From: a virus
Taxonomy: Duplodnaviria > Heunggongvirae > Uroviricota > Caudoviricetes
IMG/VR virus record: IMGVR_UViG_2737471861_000016
Length of the DNA: 8,041 nt
Reading direction: 5' to 3' (one strand)
How positions within the stretch are numbered: the first letter of the stretch is position 1; every line of letters starts with the position of its first letter. Shown here in pieces: positions 1,183 through 8,041 of the stretch. The notes beneath the pieces were generated by a model. It saw nothing but the letters and a program-made list of their open reading frames with translations. It did no database searches and was not told where the DNA came from. Position numbers and translations under genes: made by a program.

Positions 1183-1971
1183 TCAATATCTCTTGTTCGG
1201 ATTCACTGAGTACTTTTTAAGCTTTGAAGCTACTCGACCAGCGTTACTGTTAGCATTGGTGACGTTGGTTTTTTCAGCTTCTGTTAAGTCTGAATAGTCC
1301 AGCTTCCAAGCCTTATTACATTTAATCTGAGCATCGAGAATATCATTTCTGATAGCTGGAGCGTAACCGGATACATCGTTAATACTCATTAGCTCTTTGC
1401 ACGATAGCATAGGCGCGTTATTGCGTTCAGTGGTCACGTTACCTGCATTCTTCTTACTGGTCACACCACCGTCATTTGTAGTAGCAGTCTTTCCAGTTGC
1501 AGCCGAAATATCAGTTTGTCCCACGACAGCTTTAAAGTTAATTTCCTGAAAAGTTAGCTGGATACGAAGACCGTTAGAGATAGTAACATCTTTAGAGGCT
1601 TTAAAGCTCGTAATAATGGAATCATCAATCTTGATACCGTCTTTACAGATAACTGAAATAATTTGCTTCTGGTCTCTCCAGCTCTCAAGAGTGTCAATGA
1701 AGTTTTCTACTAATTGACCCTGACGAGTTAATAATAAGCTCCCTTCATAGCCAACTACAACGACACCACTAATAGTGATTGTTCTGGGTGCTCTTTGCAC
1801 GTTATCTGTAACGGTTTGCCCTGATTGCATGTTCTGTGTAGTTACCTGCATAGGACTATCAAATTCCATGTTCTCAGTTGCTGATAAGGTTAAGAAGGCA
1901 TCTACATTATCTCTTAAGTGGAAATAGATGCCGTCTTTGCCACTGTAGCGGATTTGATTGCTAAAAATCAT
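1183..1971 (-). CDS. Hypothetical protein (262 aa) immediately downstream of the tape measure gene; possible tail component by position only
   Basis: ORF with an internal ATG at 1971-1969 preceded by AAGGAG at 6-nt spacing (minus strand AAAGGAGAATTTAATG). The track's upstream TTG at 1992 lacks an RBS. No motif recognised. Confidence 0.6.
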
Positions 1972-1988
1972 TAAATTCTCCTTTGATT

Positions 1989-2032
1989 TCAAAGGCTTAG
2001 TGTATTTTAATCATTTTTAACCAAGCCTTTGA
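1989..2032. promoter_or_regulatory. 10-bp perfect inverted repeat (TCAAAGGCTT / AAGCCTTTGA) with 24-bp spacer, just upstream of the RBS of the 262-aa gene
   Basis: Arms at 1989-1998 and 2023-2032 are exact reverse complements. No T tract follows on either strand, so this looks like an operator or RNA structure rather than a terminator. Confidence 0.45.
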
Positions 2033-2127
2033 TATATAAGTACTTTCTCTGTTAAGCGTGAGCTACGTAAATTCTATTTTTCAGTGCGGGTATTAACTTT
2101 GCTTTATTCACGTAGAACACCGTTAAA

Positions 2128-4308
2128 TCAATCATCTTCTGGGAATGATGAACTCAATAACGTAGCCTCTGCATATTGGTCATACAGACTGCTGTTAAAT
2201 GTCATAAAGCTGGTTTCATCTGGTTTAATAGCAACTTCACCACCAAGTGAAACTTTCACAGGCTCCTGAATACGTTTACTCAAAGCAGAGATTTCATCCC
2301 TCAGACTTTGAATATCTGCACTCGTTAATGCTGAATCTTGCTTAATATTGTTTAATTCTGGATGATTGAATCTTGCAATATTCATTGTGGCATTGTTAAA
2401 CAATTCACCCATTGAACTAAAAATTTTACTCCACCCCTCATTAATCATATTCGGTTTATTAGGGTCACCAGAATACACAGGATTAAAGTCACTACCCACA
2501 CCTACCCCAGATGGATGCATATTAGCGTTTTTGACTACTTCCTGATTCATAAAATCCAGTGCTTTCTTCAATGCATATAAACCAAGAGTGACACCTCTGA
2601 TTTGTGGAATCATTGAAGCTAATGCTAACGCTGTTTCATAACCGTCATCAGCATAACCAATTGCAAGAGCACTACCTACACCACCAGCTACACCTTTCAG
2701 TTTTCCACCACCTTTACCAGTAGCTACCTGACCAGCCACCTGATTAGCTCTTGTACCTAACGTTGTGATTGCTCTTGTCAGGTTCATAACCCCTGTAGTA
2801 GCACTGAATAGTGTCTTTGCAGATAACGCTATAGCAAGACCTTTGACGAAGTTGATAAAACCATCACCGACTTCATCAAGTAGTTTTCGTTTAGTGTCAT
2901 CAAGGCTGTAATAGAACTTCTTAGTCTGTAAAATCCAGCCTTCAAGGTGATTGTTAAAGATACGGATGTCATCTACACCAGCTTTAAGCATGTCGATAAG
3001 TCCACCGATAGCATCACCAGCGATAGAAGAACTCATCCCCATTTCACTAAGCAAGCTACTCATGCTGGATAAGAAGCCATTTAGCTCATCCTGTGAACCT
3101 GAGAAGATTTTCACCATCGTATCATCCCAGTTGTTTGCTAACTTACCTAAAGCTGTCTGTGTGCTCTTAGCGACTTCAGCCCAGCCACCCGCTTTATCAA
3201 TCATCAAGCCCATCTGTTTAGCGACTTTAGGGAGAGTATCAGCGGAAAGCACCTTCCCGTCTTTCATCGCTTTATCAAGCTCTGTAGCAGTCATACCCAA
3301 TGCTTCAGCGAATAGCTTAAATGCACCAGCCATACGGTCACCTAACTGACCACGAAGCTCTTCAGCCTGAATCTTGCCCTTAGAAGCCATCTGCTCAAAA
3401 GCTTTCAAAATGCCGTTTAGCTCATCGTTAGAAAGCCCCATTAAGCGACTCATAGCTGTTGCATTACCAAATAGTTGTTGTGTCTCATCCTGTGACATAG
3501 AACCCTGAGCACCTGCTGCAAACTTAGCGTAGCTTGATAGCCCTTCAGAGATATTAAGACCTGTCTTGTCTGCTAAATTTCGAATAAATACCTCAGCTTC
3601 AGATGCTTTATCACCAAGTACAAACTTAGCGGCTCTCTGTGCGGAATCTCGTTTAAGACCTGCATTCATGATGGCCTTGTAAGCGTTAAGAGCACCCATC
3701 ACAGAGTAAAATGCACCAGATAATTTAATCGCATTGCTTGCAAGATTATTAAATGCGTCGCTTGTATTGTTAATGCTGGTGGTCTTTGTCTGTGACCTGA
3801 GTTTATTCAACGTTTCACGAAGAGATTGATTTAATTTTGCAAGTTCAGCGTTAAACTTTTCACTTCCAATATTACCAGCCTTACCGCTTAAGCTGTAATA
3901 CTGTGCTTTAAACATTTTAGCCATCAGCGGATTAATATCACCAAGCTTAGACATATTCACGCTATGTGCCGCTGTGATTGCTCTGTTGCCGCTAATTCGT
4001 GGCTGTCTTGATTGTTTTGGAGGATTAACAGTGTCATTAAATCTGGTGGCAAACTGAAATACTTTTGTGTTTCTTGCTCTCTGTTCAATCTTGTCAAAGG
4101 TCTTATTAAACTTCCTTTCAAGTTGCCCTAAAGAACTTGTCAGATTGCTGTCAAGTTGCTTGGTATCGACCTTAAACGCTCTATTCAAATTACGTTCAAT
4201 TCTTTGTGCTGACTGCAAAGCTGCCTTTTCAACTCTTTGCAAGCCCTTAATAACGTTCTCGCTGAAGCCTAGCTCAACGATAAAACTATCAACTGTGAAT
4301 TTGCTCAT
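2128..4308 (-). CDS. Phage tail tape measure protein (726 aa)
   Basis: Contains the tape-measure signature KGKIQAEELRGQLGDRMAGAFKLFAEALGMTATELDKAMKDGKVLSADTLPKVAKQM, which resembles the lambda gpH segment ELNKALKDGKILQADYNTLM. It also has a Gly-rich hydrophobic region (GKGGGKLKGVAGGVGSALAIGY) and a long helical N-terminus. RBS AGAGGTGAAAC precedes the ATG. Confidence 0.85.
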   Translation of the reverse strand: MSKFTVDSFIVELGFSENVIKGLQRVEKAALQSAQRIERNLNRAFKVDTKQLDSNLTSSLGQLERKFNKTFDKIEQRARNTKVFQFATRFNDTVNPPKQSRQPRISGNRAITAAHSVNMSKLGDINPLMAKMFKAQYYSLSGKAGNIGSEKFNAELAKLNQSLRETLNKLRSQTKTTSINNTSDAFNNLASNAIKLSGAFYSVMGALNAYKAIMNAGLKRDSAQRAAKFVLGDKASEAEVFIRNLADKTGLNISEGLSSYAKFAAGAQGSMSQDETQQLFGNATAMSRLMGLSNDELNGILKAFEQMASKGKIQAEELRGQLGDRMAGAFKLFAEALGMTATELDKAMKDGKVLSADTLPKVAKQMGLMIDKAGGWAEVAKSTQTALGKLANNWDDTMVKIFSGSQDELNGFLSSMSSLLSEMGMSSSIAGDAIGGLIDMLKAGVDDIRIFNNHLEGWILQTKKFYYSLDDTKRKLLDEVGDGFINFVKGLAIALSAKTLFSATTGVMNLTRAITTLGTRANQVAGQVATGKGGGKLKGVAGGVGSALAIGYADDGYETALALASMIPQIRGVTLGLYALKKALDFMNQEVVKNANMHPSGVGVGSDFNPVYSGDPNKPNMINEGWSKIFSSMGELFNNATMNIARFNHPELNNIKQDSALTSADIQSLRDEISALSKRIQEPVKVSLGGEVAIKPDETSFMTFNSSLYDQYAEATLLSSSFPEDD

Positions 4309-4338
4309 TCATGTTTCACCTCTTAAGTGTTCATATAC

Positions 4339-4379
4339 GAAAAAGGGGAGGACCAACCAATTAAGGTTAATCTCTCCCC
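4339..4379 (-). terminator. Intrinsic terminator or attenuator candidate in the 93-bp gap directly upstream of the tape measure start
   Basis: On the minus-strand transcript: GGGGAG (pairs 4374-4379 with 4345-4350), an inner AACC/GGTT stem around AATTAA, then CTCCCC followed immediately by TTTTT. About 30 nt further on lies the tape measure RBS. Confidence 0.5.
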
Positions 4380-4401
4380 GTATTCACCCAACCAATCTTT
4401 T

Positions 4402-4611
4402 TTAATGCCTGACAAGATAATGTAGTTCCGTTTCACCTATAATTTGAGCATCGGAAGGGATACGGTCGATACACCACTTTGGAATCTTGCGTGTTTTTGG
4501 TTTGTGTGAGGTGATAACTTGACGTTTGTTTTTAATTCTTAAGGCTGGATTGGCTTGTAACTTTAAGTTTTCACAAACAGACCGAATAGTCTCTAAACGC
4601 TCTTCAAACAT
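4402..4611 (-). CDS. Hypothetical small basic protein (69 aa)
   Basis: ATG at 4611-4609 preceded by AAGAGGTGATTA, almost the same RBS as the tape measure gene. An in-frame stop lies just upstream, so it is not a frameshift extension of the 235-aa gene. Confidence 0.5.
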   Translation of the reverse strand: MFEERLETIRSVCENLKLQANPALRIKNKRQVITSHKPKTRKIPKWCIDRIPSDAQIIGETELHYLVRH

Positions 4612-4634
4612 TAATCACCTCTTTTAATTCATAG

Positions 4635-5342
4635 TTAAAGTGCCTTTGCATATTTCTGAGAAATCTTCGTAAGCTGCTCAATATCAGCCTGCATAGCAAC
4701 CTTCTTCTGCGACTCATATTCACTAACAAGGTCTTTCATAGCCTGAAGCTCTCTTGAGAGATACAACTTAACATTATCAAGTTGCTTGTTACGTGATGCC
4801 AAGATGTTCTGTCTGGCAAGTTCACAGAGTTCTTCATCGCTCTTATTAGTCATGTAAATAAACTGACCAGCACCTCTTGATGCCTTAACCATCTTCACAA
4901 TTCGGTGTCCATCAGGAAGATTATTAATCACGTCTGGGATATTCTCAGGAAAAGTACCAAAACCATCATTGTCTTCATATTGGTGATAAACAAATGGTTT
5001 CTGTGACAATTCATCCTGAATCTCAAATTCTGACGGTTCAATAGCTGATTGCATCAGGGTAACTTTGCTGTAAGCGTCATCTAATCTAAGACGCTGTGCT
5101 TTTAAAGCTGGGTAATATTTCTTTTCAAGCTCAAGCAATGCTTCAGTTTTGCAGATATCAGGCATTTCTTGAGGTTCAGGGGCCACAAAGGTGATTTCTT
5201 TTGGCGACCTCTTTAACTCTTGCTCAAACTTAATTCTTTCATCGTGCTCTTTGCGCTGAATAGCGATAGCTGGATGTTCAGTCTGTGGTGACCAGTCACC
5301 GAAGCTATCAATCTTTTTACCGTTAATATATAGATTTTCCAT
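4635..5342 (-). CDS. Hypothetical protein (235 aa) with a charged, probably coiled-coil C-terminal third
   Basis: ATG at 5342-5340 preceded by AAGAGGA at 7-nt spacing. C-terminal region (ELARQNILASRNKQLDNVKLYLSRELQAMKDLVSEYESQKK) is helix-like. No family recognised; it does not look like a beta-rich major tail protein. Confidence 0.6.
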   Translation of the reverse strand: MENLYINGKKIDSFGDWSPQTEHPAIAIQRKEHDERIKFEQELKRSPKEITFVAPEPQEMPDICKTEALLELEKKYYPALKAQRLRLDDAYSKVTLMQSAIEPSEFEIQDELSQKPFVYHQYEDNDGFGTFPENIPDVINNLPDGHRIVKMVKASRGAGQFIYMTNKSDEELCELARQNILASRNKQLDNVKLYLSRELQAMKDLVSEYESQKKVAMQADIEQLTKISQKYAKAL

Positions 5343-5351
5343 TTCATTTTC

Positions 5352-5413
5352 CTCTTCTAAGTATATTCAGTTTTTAAAAAGCACACCTGACAGCCTATCT
5401 AAACTTAGAAGAG
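5352..5413 (-). promoter_or_regulatory. 11-bp perfect inverted repeat whose downstream arm overlaps the Shine-Dalgarno of the 235-aa gene (possible RBS-sequestering hairpin)
   Basis: CTCTTCTAAGT (5352-5362) and ACTTAGAAGAG (5403-5413) are exact reverse complements. In the minus-strand mRNA the 3' arm ACUUAGAAGAG runs into the SD AAGAGGA. The 40-nt loop contains nested TCAG/CTGA and a TTTTTAAAAA palindrome. Confidence 0.45.
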
Positions 5414-5577
5414 ACTTAAAAGGCGGTTTGCCAAGTATGCTTTTTAAAAGCTGAAAAAAGCCCTAAACATAGGTGATTCGGATATTCATGGAATCATCCT
5501 TATCTGTGAAGGGCTTTGAAGGTTTGCTTATAACGTTAACGAAGTTTCAGGAAAAACTTTCTTTAAAAGTTCTGTTT

Positions 5578-5616
5578 GAAAACTCTTAAAGAAACGCCCT
5601 AACTCATGATTAGGGC
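5578..5616 (-). terminator. Intrinsic terminator or attenuator candidate inside the long leader
   Basis: Minus-strand transcript: GCCCTAA (5616-5610), loop TCATGAG, TTAGGGC (5602-5596), followed by GTTTCTTTAAGAGTTTTC. The plus-strand orientation has no U tract. Confidence 0.45.
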
Positions 5617-5763
5617 AAAGCTGTAAGGGTTCAATAATGAATGATTAAGCACTTTTTGAGATGACCTCTCAGACTAAACTGAAAGGCCATGACGAAAAGC
5701 ATTGCACCTTTCCAATCAGAATATAGTTATCATCGATGTAGAGACGATTAATAGTTTAATTCA

Positions 5764-5780
5764 GGAAGAGTTGCTCTTCC
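5764..5780. promoter_or_regulatory. Perfect 7-bp stem, 3-nt loop hairpin (GGAAGAG ttg CTCTTCC)
   Basis: Exact inverted repeat at 5764-5770 and 5774-5780. It lies just downstream (minus-strand sense) of the candidate promoter at 5789-5817. No U tract follows, so it is a 5' stem-loop or protein-binding site rather than a terminator. Confidence 0.4.
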
Positions 5781-5788
5781 CTATTACC

Positions 5789-5842
5789 ATCATCTCATGC
5801 TTAAGATTATTTGTCAACAGCTTTTTAACAGATTGGTAACAT
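5789..5842 (-). promoter_or_regulatory. Candidate minus-strand promoter and operator: TTGACA -35 with weak -10, plus three phased (C/T)AACA(G/T) repeats
   Basis: Minus-strand TTGACA (plus 5812-5817), 17-bp spacer, GATGAT (plus 5789-5794). The plus strand carries CAACAG 5815-5820, TAACAG 5826-5831 and TAACAT 5837-5842 at exact 11-bp spacing. The core TTGTCAACA is shared with the 7197-7205 promoter region. Confidence 0.4.
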
Positions 5843-5918
5843 TAATTCTTATTTACCGTGTTACCTACCCAGCAACCAACAAATAAACCCAAAGCTGTCC
5901 AAGCAATTATTAAGCCCA

Positions 5919-6242
5919 TTAATGCACCACCTTCGAATCCGTAACCAAAATATTGTCAGCGTACAAAATTTCTATAGCTGCCTTGAGATATTTTTCAGGG
6001 CTAACGCTGTATTTGTTCGTTTGCTCGATAACCAATCTTTTCATGTTGCTGTCTTTAATTGGTAGCATCATTCGAGGCTCGTTAAACTCCACCGACTGAA
6101 TAAAGTCAGAGATGTTTTCTGCATTATCAGCCATCAAAGCTAACAGCCGGTCAAAGTCAATGCTAATACCTGCATCAATGAAGCTTTGCACCATCATAGC
6201 GGTGTCGTTATCAACGAAAATCTGTAGCGGGTAATTGTTCAT
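5919..6242 (-). CDS. Hypothetical acidic protein (107 aa)
   Basis: ATG at 6242-6240 preceded by AGGAGA at 9-nt spacing. No recognisable motif. Confidence 0.6.
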   Translation of the reverse strand: MNNYPLQIFVDNDTAMMVQSFIDAGISIDFDRLLALMADNAENISDFIQSVEFNEPRMMLPIKDSNMKRLVIEQTNKYSVSPEKYLKAAIEILYADNILVTDSKVVH

Positions 6243-6412
6243 TTCTTAAAATCTCCTTTTTCACCAGACCTCCTCAATCGCTCTGTAACGAGCTAAACAG
6301 TCTTTTTCAGGGGTAGCCTGTAGGGGTGTACCACATACCCTAAAATAAGATAGTTTTTTGCGTTAGAATGCGATTGAGAGCGTCTGAGAGTGGGTAAACC
6401 CGTTTTTTGCCT

Positions 6413-6622
6413 TTAGTCTGAGACTATTAACCCCATCTCACTATGAAATTGACTAAACCAGCTTTTTGTTACTGAGGTTTTTAGTGTGAAAGATGGGGAT
6501 TGCATAATCAGATAGATGCCATCATTATCAATGTCACCCCATCCATTATGTACATCAATTAGATTTCGAAAATATTTAAAGGCTTTGTCTGTTTTAAGTT
6601 TGAGGGTGAATACTTTCTTCAT
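6413..6622 (-). CDS. Hypothetical protein (69 aa), translationally coupled to the upstream gene
   Basis: ATG at 6622-6620 overlaps the TGA of the upstream gene (ATGA overlap) and is preceded by GGGGGAAAGA. The track's TTG at 6634 is an unlikely start. Confidence 0.55.
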   Translation of the reverse strand: MKKVFTLKLKTDKAFKYFRNLIDVHNGWGDIDNDGIYLIMQSPSFTLKTSVTKSWFSQFHSEMGLIVSD

Positions 6623-6849
6623 TCTTTCCCCCAATTCTTAATGAGTTCACAGGCCCGTTTAAATTGAGTCGGGTCACTATAATCAAGCTCGATATCCAGT
6701 GACTTTAATTCATAGCGTAACTGCTCAATTTGATGTGGCTTTAGTCTTTTCTTGTTACGGTCAAGCGTAACATCTTCATATTCTTTTGAGCGGGTATCTT
6801 GCCTGATTAGATGTGATGCCAGTTTATAAAATTTGTACCTATAACACAT
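6619..6849 (-). CDS. Hypothetical basic protein (76 aa), translationally coupled to the RHH-like gene
   Basis: ATG at 6849-6847 overlaps the TAA of the upstream gene (TAATG) and is preceded by GGGGG. No family recognised. Confidence 0.55.
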   Translation of the reverse strand: MCYRYKFYKLASHLIRQDTRSKEYEDVTLDRNKKRLKPHQIEQLRYELKSLDIELDYSDPTQFKRACELIKNWGKE

Positions 6850-7139
6850 TAAACCCCCAGCTTATCCGCCAGTTGATGAACCTTAGCGCTTAACACCTGA
6901 ATCATTGAGCAACCTGTTACAGCGGACTGTGCTTTGAGTAGTTCCAGTTGGCCCGTTGTGATTCTGATGGCCTTAGAACCCTCTGCAACGCCCTTAACGT
7001 TATCAAAAGGGGTAAGGGCTACCGACTCTTTTAAAAGCTCTCCAACAAGCGCCGTGTGCTTCATATCGGGATATTTGGTTTTGATTGCTGCCAGTCGTTC
7101 AAATGCCTCTGGCAAAAGGCGCGTAACTGTGTGAGTCAT
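6849..7139 (-). CDS. Putative ribbon-helix-helix (CopG/Arc-like) DNA-binding regulator, possibly two tandem RHH-like units (96 aa)
   Basis: N-terminus HTVTRLLPEAFERLAAIKTKYPDMKHTALVGELLKESV fits the RHH pattern (beta strand, then LPEEL-type helix, then helix B). A second similar unit follows (KAIRITTGQLELLKAQSAVTGCSMIQVLSAKVHQL). Strong promoter and AAGGAG RBS upstream. Confidence 0.5.
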   Translation of the reverse strand: MTHTVTRLLPEAFERLAAIKTKYPDMKHTALVGELLKESVALTPFDNVKGVAEGSKAIRITTGQLELLKAQSAVTGCSMIQVLSAKVHQLADKLGV

Positions 7140-7174
7140 TGTAAAATCTCCTTAAATCTCTTACTCATACTACA

Positions 7175-7203
7175 ATCTTAACATTTATTTAACATATTGT
7201 CAA
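7175..7203 (-). promoter_or_regulatory. Sigma70-type promoter candidate for the RHH-led operon
   Basis: Minus-strand TTGACA (plus 7198-7203), 17-bp spacer, TAAGAT (plus 7175-7180). AAGGAG RBS sits 8 nt before the ATG at 7139. Confidence 0.6.
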
Positions 7204-7217
7204 CATCTCATTTACAT
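7179..7217. repeat. Four hexamer repeats (T/C)(A/T)ACAT phased at exactly 11 bp across the divergent promoter region (operator candidate)
   Basis: TAACAT 7179-7184, TAACAT 7190-7195, CAACAT 7201-7206, TTACAT 7212-7217. Confidence 0.55.
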
Positions 7218-7225
7218 GTTAATAT
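7197..7225 (+). promoter_or_regulatory. Sigma70-type promoter candidate for the small plus-strand ORF, back-to-back with the minus-strand promoter
   Basis: TTGTCA (7197-7202), 17-bp spacer, TAATAT (7220-7225) with an upstream TG (extended -10). Its -35 overlaps the minus-strand -35 by 5 bp. Confidence 0.5.
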
Positions 7226-7275
7226 GGTTATAGGGGCTGATACAGGTCATTCCCTTTGATAAATAAGGGGAATTA

Positions 7276-7461
7276 ATGGGCTTTCTTGAAACAATTGCTG
7301 AATCTCACAGATTCGCAAGCTTAGGTTGCTTTGTGTTTTTGGTGCTTCTGGTGTATCAGCTTTTAAAAATGATTATCGCCAAAAGTACACGATTCAATTT
7401 CAGCATTAAGTTTTTCAAATATGAAATCACAATTACGATTGATGATGGTAAAACAAACTAA
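7276..7461 (+). CDS. Small hydrophobic single-pass membrane peptide candidate (61 aa)
   Basis: ATG at 7276 preceded by AAGGGG at 5-nt spacing and by the plus-strand promoter. Contains one predicted transmembrane segment (LGCFVFLVLLVYQLLKMII). Its stop overlaps the stop of the convergent HNH/AP2-like gene. Confidence 0.4.
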   Translation: MGFLETIAESHRFASLGCFVFLVLLVYQLLKMIIAKSTRFNFSIKFFKYEITITIDDGKTN

Positions 7462-7751
7462 CGTTTTGTGATGATATTGGTGGCTCTCAGATTACCGGGG
7501 TCACCGTCTTTTAATCGTAGCTGGTGGACTGAATCCCAGATATCATAATGATACAGCACTGCAAACCTCAAAGCGTCAATCTTTAAATCTGTCACACCAT
7601 CGTAAAAGAAATAATAATCTCTCCCTTCCTTCTTCGGTCTAATCCGGTAAACTTCCCCGTGAGTATCCTTCATAAGATGACCTTCACGAGAAATGCGGTA
7701 ACGCTTTAACAGGCAATCTTTGTATCTCTTTTCACCGTGATATTCTTTCAT
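7458..7751 (-). CDS. HNH_3/AP2-like domain protein (97 aa); the canonical catalytic His position appears substituted
   Basis: Pattern YRISREGHLMK...ALRFAVLYHY...LRLKDGDPGNLRATNI resembles HNH_3/AP2-type domains (VHRLVAEAF...NHKDGNKTNNRxxNL). ATG at 7751-7749 is preceded by GGAGG at 9 nt and overlaps the upstream TAA (TAATG). The track's GTG at 7757 is too close to the RBS. Confidence 0.4.
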   Translation of the reverse strand: MKEYHGEKRYKDCLLKRYRISREGHLMKDTHGEVYRIRPKKEGRDYYFFYDGVTDLKIDALRFAVLYHYDIWDSVHQLRLKDGDPGNLRATNIITKR

Positions 7752-8041
7752 TAGCACATACCTCCACCAGCAAAATACATCTTCGGTTTAATTTTTTGCT
7801 TCTTGTCATCCTGAGTTTGTTTCTTTTTCGGTGTGAAAGAAAAGTCATCATCGTCACTGTCATCGAATGGGTCTAAACCCGATACTTTGTTCTTTTGTCT
7901 TGCAAGCTCGAATCTCTTTTTCTTCTCTACCCTCTTAATGGCTTTTTCACGTTCTGACTCTTCATCCTCTTCATCATCATCGAAGGGGTCCATCTCATCA
8001 TCAGTGGCGGGGCACTGTGTGCTGATGAATCCCCTAATGAT
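7751..8041 (-). CDS. Acidic/basic low-complexity protein with two DPFDD(D/S) repeats; 5' end probably outside the window
   Basis: The reading frame stays open to the window edge (...TDDEMDPFDDDEEDEESEREK...GLDPFDDSDDDDFSF...KKQKIKPKMYFAGGGMC). There is no convincing RBS before the ATG at 7993. It is translationally coupled to the downstream HNH/AP2-like gene. Confidence 0.5.
   Translation of the reverse strand: MIRGFISTQCPATDDEMDPFDDDEEDEESEREKAIKRVEKKKRFELARQKNKVSGLDPFDDSDDDDFSFTPKKKQTQDDKKQKIKPKMYFAGGGMC

Follow-up and report, generated by a model that had tools for sequence, protein, structure and literature searches.

The stretch of DNA analysed here (the window; 8,041 nucleotides of the virus record IMGVR_UViG_2737471861_000016) is 100% identical to part of the chromosome of Escherichia coli OkiPb01716, and belongs to an integrated island, a probable phage satellite, which carries genes for a tail tape measure protein (TMP) and a tail tube initiator (TI). 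A first-pass annotation of the window had described a 726-aa TMP flanked by products of 69, 235 and 262 aa, in a cluster which ends at a terminator facing a serine recombinase and which is preceded by a 576-bp leader. The open reading frames (ORFs) are present as described, the leader gap (5343–5918) is real, a hairpin does lie between the convergent stop codons, and four matches identify the TMP. The same annotation had noted that no structural module lies nearby. This also holds beyond the window, where a complete head and tail module was looked for: the flanking 20 kb on each side consist of core genes, with trp-ompW-yciABC-tonB next to one end of the island and yciI-kch-cls-opp next to the other, and no head or tail module was found within this distance on either side. 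Two statements needed amendment. The serine recombinase is present, but positions 12–1151 encode merely the C-terminal part of a gene split by the insertion sequence ISEc12; and the upstream genes said to be small and of regulatory type are indeed small, but one of them is the 3’ end of a gene that encodes a replication initiator. The features on which the argument depends are as follows; coordinates preceded by L001 refer to the longer locus which includes the window.

1–1151 (ORF 12–1151), plus strand: C-terminal part of a large serine recombinase (integrase); PF07508 (E value 1.7e-15), Zn_ribbon_recom (E value 1.3e-06), phrog_95 integrase (E value 5.5e-55)
1162–1179: G+C-rich hairpin GGGGGC-TAT-GCCCCC, between the convergent stop codons of the integrase and tail genes
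1183–1971, minus strand: TI homologue, 262 aa, directly following the TMP gene
2128–4308, minus strand: island-specific TMP, 726 aa, with family and PDB matches
7751–8041, minus strand: 3’ end of the gene for a replication initiator of 325 aa, which reaches window-equivalent position 8728
L001 16922–16934 and 31274–31286, outside the window (window-equivalent about -3059 and 11293): copies of the attachment core
L001 17203–19783, just left of the window: ISEc12 (IS21 family, istA/istB); both integrase halves are RefSeq pseudogenes

The 726-aa protein matches the families PF20155 TMP_3 (E value 2.7e-21; 76.6 bits against a cut-off of 41), phrog_4036 (E value 2.9e-94) and TIGR02675 (E value 2.4e-15), as well as the TMP gp017 of the Felixounavirus Bas63 (PDB: 9ndy_F; E value 7.8e-76). 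It shares about 33% identity with phage TMPs (33% with that of phage garuso). The conserved regions are the N-terminal ~45 aa, a core at aa 290–420, and the last ~10 aa, which include the conserved C-terminal motif [LI][LI]SS[SA][FY]PE[ED][ED]. Among 50,697 phage records, the closest TMPs all belong to the Ounavirinae and none is more than 60% identical to the island protein. At the nucleotide level, two segments of the gene are 75–78% identical to phages. The island proteins are also shorter, at 682–727 aa versus 735–742 aa in the phages, and their alleles share between 38% and 96% identity from one island to another. By these alignments, the island TMPs form a lineage separate from the phage TMPs in which the phage ends have been kept. 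In the island of Citrobacter sp. ANG330 (L022 10960–14997), the matches to the TMP are interrupted by ~2 kb of unmatched sequence, which represents either a much longer TMP or an insertion inside it.

Profile searches were run for the three products that flank the TMP. They gave no match to a major tail protein or chaperone for the 69-aa and 235-aa products. The 262-aa product, encoded directly after the TMP, matches PF21821 Dit_like (E value 3e-20), phrog_3721 (E value 4.9e-130) and, over residues 5–261, the “tube initiator protein gp018” of Bas63 (PDB: 9ndy_A; E value 3.6e-114). The same gene order is found in Felixounavirus, where the TI gene also directly follows that of the TMP (garuso gp119, BPS17W1 gp089). 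Overall identity to the phage protein is about 75–77% (75% with garuso gp119), and it is distributed unevenly. The tube-like N-terminal domain is ~92–97% identical to the Felixounavirus protein, while the C-terminal extension is only ~36–40% identical; in the comparison with garuso gp119, residues 13–190 are nearly identical and the last ~75 have diverged. All islands and phages nevertheless retain a Cys pair and, at the end of the protein, the SVNPNK motif. At the nucleotide level, a 518-bp part of the gene (window 1438–1956) is 90–92% identical to 212 Felixounavirus records. The 262-aa protein is thus a tail tube initiator of Felixounavirus type. In the structure of Bas63, a hexamer of TI adapts the trimeric hub to the six-fold tube, with a tube-like domain and a C-terminal extension of ~100 residues which runs through the baseplate; TI lies between hub and tube, and the last 25 residues of the TMP are on the hub and puncturing apparatus (PMC12609058). 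Judged by the residues which are conserved, the island TMP and TI retain the surfaces that contact helper parts, including the C-terminal TMP motif that docks on the hub in Bas63.

The boundaries of the island were set by comparison with the empty site of E. coli K-12. Each end bears one copy of a duplicated 13-bp core, TCAAGGGTCATTG, and inverted repeats are present on the island arms. The insertion point is in the first codons of tonB, and the core contains the tonB start codon and the first 10 nt of the gene. Because the core holds the tonB start, the native promoter and 5’ untranslated region are separated from tonB and are found 11–14 kb away, so that in carriers the transcription of tonB must come from the left end of the island. 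No tRNA genes or tRNA-like attachment sites were found. A plasmid origin was considered and rejected, there being no match in PLSDB. The island measures 11,257 bp in strain E203449 (~11.3 kb) and 14,339 bp in OkiPb01716, the larger size being due to ISEc12, which interrupts the integrase gene just upstream of the window. An intact integrase allele of 506 aa is found in island L003, and the integrase has a distant match of CcrA type. The hairpin at 1162–1179, at which the integrase and tail genes converge, has a folding energy of -12 to -15 kcal/mol (z-scores -2.0 and -2.3) and is likely to be a bidirectional terminator; a consensus terminator scan did not report it, as it has no clean T-run.

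Both alleles of the 325-aa initiator are similar to the PHROG replication initiation, O-like and DnaD-like families (E values 4e-11 to 1e-7), and there is a match to DnaD_N (E value 1.4e-3) and none to RepA_N; no confirmed match to the protein was found in IMG/VR. Inside the initiator gene, beside A+T-rich repeats, are four tandem iterons of 22 nt (L001 28275–28362; window-equivalent 8294–8381, outside the window). The corresponding allele in the island of strain A1 (L004) is 55% identical and has, at the equivalent place, three repeats of 23 nt with a different sequence. Iterons located within the initiator gene and serving as the origin are the arrangement of phage lambda O. The assignment as initiator is supported by the iterons, which change together with the protein allele, and the island is predicted to carry its own lambda-O-like replicon.

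Outside the coding sequences, two homologues of Felixounavirus non-coding DNA are present in a divergent intergenic region ~1.7 kb beyond the window (L001 29755–30271), between the methyltransferase gene and the variable right end of the island. One is a 63-bp segment with 86% identity (E value 1.5e-11) to the sequence just upstream of phage gp112, which encodes a DUF5681 protein. The possibility that this element is a repeated phage promoter consensus was rejected, as it is single-copy in the phage. The other, of ~190 bp, has 71% identity to a gene-free phage region between convergent gene blocks (E value 2e-16, one phage genome). Felixounaviruses have been reported to possess direct terminal repeats, as determined with PhageTerm (PMC11737134), which measure 581 bp in Pr103Blw (PMC8303462). 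Exact terminal repeats were found at both ends of the records of phages D4 (581 bp) and CRP22 (579 bp), and their inner boundary maps within the ~190-bp block that is homologous to the island. At this boundary, the phage sequence reads ...ATCTGCTT|GGTAGCCCTTAACAT... and that of the island ...GCTGCTAA|GTACCCGTCACAC.... The blocks AAAATTTTTATAAA, AAAAATATCT, CTGCT..GTA and CCCCTTTGCA are invariant, or nearly so, in the islands which carry this region, including that of Citrobacter, and in all four phages. Moreover, three E. coli islands with 9–14% divergence elsewhere share the same 43 nt over the putative cut site.

Beside the boundary there is a 26-bp insertion, TAGTTGATTCGGTAGAATCTACCTCA, with a GGTAG-AAT-CTACC hairpin (L001 30004–30032; L005 311–339). 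It is present in phages BPS17W1 and JLBYU28 and absent from D4 and CRP22. The same polymorphism exists among the islands; at the equivalent place the insertion is missing from L003 and L004, as it is from L009 and L011. At the insertion, 29 bp are identical between the L001 island and BPS17W1. This shared polymorphism indicates a continuing exchange, or co-evolution, of the islands with the phages. In the phages themselves, a single motif, TGCT[AT]|G(GTA)GCCC(C)TTAACAT, forms both ends of the terminal repeat, in inverted orientation relative to each other (D4: L009 1–60 and 522–640, L010 1860–1980; CRP22: L011, L012), and the interior of the repeat is rich in TCTTAACAG repeats. The inverted motif, of which no earlier description was found, is a candidate for the site of terminase recognition and cleavage. 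Felixounavirus sequence, including the terminal-repeat region, is contained as well in GU169904.1 (Staphylococcus phage SA1, 147 kb), a record which looks chimeric or contaminated.

The island was detected in 476–496 of 5426 complete E. coli genomes (~9%), always on the chromosome and at up to four places per genome, as well as in E. albertii and Citrobacter. In strain A1, the same backbone lies inside mdtG and is associated with a different large serine recombinase; there is no detectable nucleotide similarity between the two integrases. The genes are arranged in the order 97 aa, 96 aa, either 76 and 73 aa or a 128-aa helix-turn-helix (HTH) protein, 107 aa, 235 aa, 69 aa, TMP, TI, followed by the convergent integrase. 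This order is the same in seven other islands with a full tail operon, namely six Escherichia provirus calls in IMG/VR and that of Citrobacter sp. ANG330, and is truncated in E. albertii and in Escherichia sp. MOD1-EC7003. Annotations of a TMP and a “baseplate protein” are intact down the whole ranking of ~480 genomes, except for one copy interrupted by IS3. Pairwise comparison among three island variants (dS 0.12–2.3, apart from one near-identical pair) gave dN/dS values of 0.04–0.055 for TI and 0.2–0.3 for the TMP, with all remaining genes below 0.42, i.e., all island genes are under purifying selection. By these measures, the island appears to be a mobile, maintained element rather than debris.

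We propose that the island is, with fair probability, an integrative, self-replicating satellite of ~11.3 kb which exploits virulent Felix O1-like myoviruses (Felixounavirus) and gives rise to chimeric tails. An anatomy of this kind, with Felixounavirus as the helper, is suggested because the island has an integrase and attachment sites, its own origin and initiator, only two virion proteins, and a copy of a helper genome end. The first-pass annotation had offered a satellite that remodels helper tails as one of its two explanations, and this fits the sequence evidence well, with Felixounavirus the likely helper; the PLEs of Vibrio provide a precedent (PMC12987554). The layout is that of a single leftward operon in which the TMP and TI genes come last. 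Upon infection by a Felix O1-like phage, the island would excise, replicate from its own origin and express this operon. The island TMP and TI would then take the place of gp17 and gp18 on baseplate hubs made by the phage, which would lead to chimeric tails 1–9 nm shorter, as calculated at 0.15 nm per residue. The phage terminase would read the terminal-repeat mimic, and concatemers of the island (~7 copies per 87-kb head) would be packaged and transferred. The 69-aa protein, the 235-aa protein or both might act as chaperones of the island TMP and favour island tails, or might block phage tail assembly, by which the bacterial population would be protected as well. Induction, packaging, transfer and the incorporation of the island tail proteins into particles are all inferred from the genes. 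It is an evenly balanced proposition that a widespread, undescribed satellite family of E. coli and its relatives is involved here, in which the TMP and TI are replaced on the helper hub and packaging relies on a copied repeat boundary. In the literature that was searched, no paper links Felixounavirus with phage satellites.

Several observations weigh against this proposal. The copy in OkiPb01716 is probably unable to excise, and hence probably immobile, since its integrase is interrupted by ISEc12. The attP junction predicted for the excised island is absent from IMG/VR and from JGI metagenome contigs in exact-match scans, a result which is uninformative either way, and the IMG/VR matches come from isolate genomes, where they were called as proviruses, and not from virion DNA. 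Neither a gene for redirection of capsid size, nor a small terminase, nor a recognisable tail chaperone was found in the island, and the filling of an 87-kb head by an 11-kb element is conjecture. The boundary mimic is only ~71% identical to a phage region whose packaging role is itself putative, and a mimic of the second terminal-repeat boundary was not found in the island.

The island might instead serve defence, a reading that we regard as unlikely though worth weighing: look-alike TMP and TI would poison phage baseplates and abort tail assembly, the phage-like DNA would be a sensor, a promoter or a decoy for the terminase, and the island would spread by other means. The tube-like domain of TI is almost unchanged while the extension that spans the baseplate and most of the TMP have diverged, which is the pattern of a dominant-negative protein; the allelic diversity of the TMP among islands (38–96% identity) resembles that of an arms race; and evidence of packaging is absent from the attP exact-match scans of IMG/VR and JGI contigs. 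Defences that target tail assembly are known as well, namely Rta (PMC12987554) and Tab (PMC10884400). However, both TMP termini, the TI Cys pair and SVNPNK are retained under strong purifying selection, which fits working structural proteins better, and a replicon together with a terminal-repeat mimic would be superfluous in a purely defensive element. In the island, PADLOC finds only an orphan methyltransferase. Defence coexists with satellite transfer in the PLEs, so that it also overlaps with the satellite proposal.

Passive capture is less probable still. Under this explanation, a piece of the Felixounavirus tail module would have been taken up by recombination and be carried as cargo with another role or none, e.g., as a reservoir of alleles for phages. 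The local, mosaic similarity to phage DNA (nucleotide identity of 90% across 518 bp in the TI gene and 75–78% in two TMP segments) would be expected from such an origin, and the shared 26-bp indel speaks for repeated exchange between island and phage. Yet the TMP forms a lineage of its own, the 50,697 records containing no phage TMP above 60% identity; the TMP and TI are kept together under purifying selection in every variant, within an invariant p235-p69-TMP-TI-integrase order; and passive cargo would be expected to have been lost or pseudogenised in some of the ~480 genomes, where the annotations are intact save for the IS3-interrupted copy. The second explanation of the first-pass annotation, that of a complete prophage which decayed through loss of its head and tail genes, has very little left to commend it. 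A TMP gene, an integrase and small genes of regulatory appearance superficially resemble the end of a prophage, but the closest relatives of the tail genes are those of strictly virulent phages of ~87 kb that lack a lysogeny module. Precise ends, the same 11-kb content and gene order in copies at different sites, in different genera and with different integrases, purifying selection on all genes (dN/dS 0.04–0.42) and an own replication origin also contradict it.

If the satellite proposal is correct, the fast evolution of the TMP and the 235-aa protein would mark an arms race with a phage genus much used in therapy and typing, and the island would give the PLE-ICP1 pair its first genetically tractable counterpart in E. 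coli, and be the first known case of a satellite that provides a tube initiator. Satellites which rebuild the tails of virulent phages were demonstrated only in 2026, and only in Vibrio cholerae. The helper genus has an atomic virion structure (Bas63), in which the positions of both island proteins can be assigned exactly. Since the island is carried by about one in eleven complete E. coli genomes and therapy cocktails often contain Felix O1-like phages, it could be a frequent, unrecognised cause of poor phage yield or of resistance, and a route of gene transfer. The copy of the repeat boundary would, in addition, point to the still undefined packaging signal of the Felix O1-like phages.

The remaining features of the window are as follows.

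4402–4611, minus strand: basic protein of 69 aa, directly upstream of the TMP gene; 46–100% identity, kept in all island variants
4635–5342, minus strand: orphan protein of 235 aa; predicted coiled-coil hairpin and small alpha/beta domain (AlphaFold2 (AF2), pLDDT 80)
5343–5918, minus strand: leader of the tail-gene operon, 576 bp; conserved at 85–88% among islands
5919–6242, minus strand: conserved island protein of 107 aa; in all variants, 74–92% identity (26% in L014); dN/dS 0.2–0.4
6413–6849, minus strand: overlapping small ORFs of 73 and 76 aa, unannotated in RefSeq
6849–7139, minus strand: conserved island protein of 96 aa; dN/dS about 0.12; 94–97% identity among L001, L003 and L004
7276–7461, plus strand: ORF of 61 aa with one hydrophobic helix; unannotated, between two island genes on the opposite strand
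7458–7751, minus strand: conserved island protein of 97 aa; RefSeq coding sequence; dN/dS 0.10–0.20

The 69-aa and 235-aa proteins have no match in Pfam, PHROG, NCBIfam, PADLOC or, by sequence, the PDB, and neither resembles the two phage tail assembly chaperones with which they were compared. The AF2 model of the 69-aa protein is poor (pLDDT 61), and the protein may be a chaperone, an inhibitor or a recombination directionality factor. Fold searches with the model of the 235-aa protein returned generic coiled-coil matches only. Clustering of its homologues at 90% identity gives 3100 groups, of which nearly all come from Escherichia or Shigella, but at 50% identity there are only about six full-length clusters in a set of 1.8 billion representatives; a tblastn search revealed no phage homologue. 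This protein is hypervariable between islands, the L003 allele being 29% identical, and alleles with identities as low as 29% are swapped between otherwise similar islands. The name “transposase”, which RefSeq/NCBI attaches to most of the homologues, was discarded, as it is not supported by NCBIfam, Pfam or PHROG.

The leader that precedes the 235-aa gene contains a near-consensus promoter-like site at 5817–5789 (TTGACA, a 17-nt spacer, and GATGAT preceded by TG). Downstream of this site and before the 235-aa gene are two terminator-like hairpins, at 5617–5595 and about 5515–5455, and the folding z-scores of the leader are -3.8 and -2.5. Such an arrangement could function as an antitermination switch, or the leader could contain a gene for a small RNA. 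A regulatory RNA directed against phage transcripts was rejected, since no Rfam family was matched and complementarity to phage was no better than that of shuffled sequence. Further upstream, the 73-aa and 76-aa ORFs were found by tblastn with 94–97% identity in L013 and L014 and 44–57% in L019, while in L003, L015, L016, L020 and L022 they are replaced by the 128-aa p128, which has a weak match to HTH_28; positions 6413–6849 are thus an exchangeable cassette. Back-to-back promoter-like sites are located at 7203–7175 (minus strand) and 7197–7225 (plus strand), of which the latter feeds the 61-aa ORF. This ORF is conserved as protein even at 44% identity (L003, L020), and may encode a small membrane protein.

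Beyond the window, the island encodes a phage-type Dam methyltransferase (L001 29092–29754) with a C-terminal resolvase-type HTH_7 domain and, at its right end, a small resolvase/invertase (L001 30272–30814), which occurs as two unrelated alleles and is missing from some islands. The island of Citrobacter sp. ANG330 is without the Dam methyltransferase and has a different initiator allele. Apart from the orphan methyltransferase, PADLOC reported no defence family in the island. Among the island proteins searched, none was identified as a capsid, portal, terminase, tube, sheath or baseplate wedge protein, and window positions 4309–8041 have no DNA match in the 50,697 phage records.

With regard to known systems, the island has what phage satellites in general possess: an own integrase with defined attachment sites, an own (predicted) replication module, and less than a complete set of virion genes. 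The hallmarks of PICIs and cf-PICIs are a small terminase and/or genes for capsid morphogenesis or capsid formation. In contrast, the island integrase is a serine recombinase, and no terS, capsid, portal or connector genes were found. P4-like satellites are characterised by the alpha primase-helicase, sid/psu/delta, and a P2-type cos; none of the P4 hallmark families was detected in any island protein, and a cos site was not searched for. The EPIPs of Mycolicibacterium aichiense are satellites that encode a TMP together with a serine integrase and an HTH protein, and their particles have tails of altered length (bioRxiv 2025, PMC12822802). They share these three genes with the E. coli island, whereas their small terminase, head-tail connectors, scaffold and capsid protein were not found in it; the EPIP helper is a temperate siphovirus prophage and the putative helper of the island is virulent. 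The PICMIs of the Vibrionaceae are packaged as concatemers in full-size capsids (Nat Commun 2024, PMC10803314), which is the mode that we propose for the island. They resemble it in their minimal gene content, virulent helper and absence of capsid-remodelling genes, and differ in that no tail genes are reported in the abstract; the comparison is one of descriptions only.

The tail initiation complex of Bas63 (PMC12609058; PDB: 9ndy) provides a structural parallel, as the island TMP and TI are homologous to gp17 and gp18 and are encoded in the same order. The island is, however, without the chaperones, hub, puncturing apparatus, wedge, tube and sheath, and its TMP is 8–60 aa shorter and mostly diverged. 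For the 69-aa and 235-aa proteins, the Rta of PLE11 and Tab (PMC10884400) offer a possible parallel, which is an analogy with no sequence or fold similarity established.

Of the known systems, the one nearest to the island is that of the PLEs of V. cholerae, whose integrase is a large serine recombinase and whose helper is the virulent myovirus ICP1. They encode their own chaperone, TMP and, in some, baseplate hub, which are incorporated into PLE particles with tails ~10 nm shorter, while the 80-aa Rta of PLE11 blocks the TMP of ICP1; according to the authors, putative tmp genes are present in other PLE-like elements and in cf-PICIs (PMC12987554). The E. coli element is likewise a small chromosomal island with a large serine recombinase, its own replication initiator and, as proposed here, a virulent myovirus as helper. 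Both also have a partial tail operon, with a TMP slightly shorter than that of the helper, one protein of the baseplate or of tube initiation, and small uncharacterised operon proteins. Genes specific to PLEs include a RepA_N-type initiator, TcaP, NixI, LidI, CapR and SviR, and PLEs measure ~18 kb. The island is ~11 kb long with no capsid-remodelling gene identified, its initiator is of lambda-O/DnaD type with no RepA_N match, and the Pfam and PHROG searches gave no hint of TcaP, NixI, LidI, CapR or SviR. Host and helper are V. cholerae and ICP1 in one case, and E. coli and, as putative helper, Felixounavirus in the other. The second tail protein is the hub BhuB in PLE and a tube initiator in the island, and the 69-aa and 235-aa proteins do not match, by sequence, the tail assembly chaperone of PLE1 (PDB: 5IR0) or any other PDB chain. 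The degree of relatedness to the helper differs as well, the island TI being ~77% identical to its counterpart (92–97% in the N-terminal domain) versus 20–41% for the PLE proteins and those of ICP1. Because it has no chaperone homologue, an O-like initiator, and a tube initiator instead of a hub, we do not file the island as a member of the PLE family; by analogy, it would resemble a PLE in its proposed way of working.

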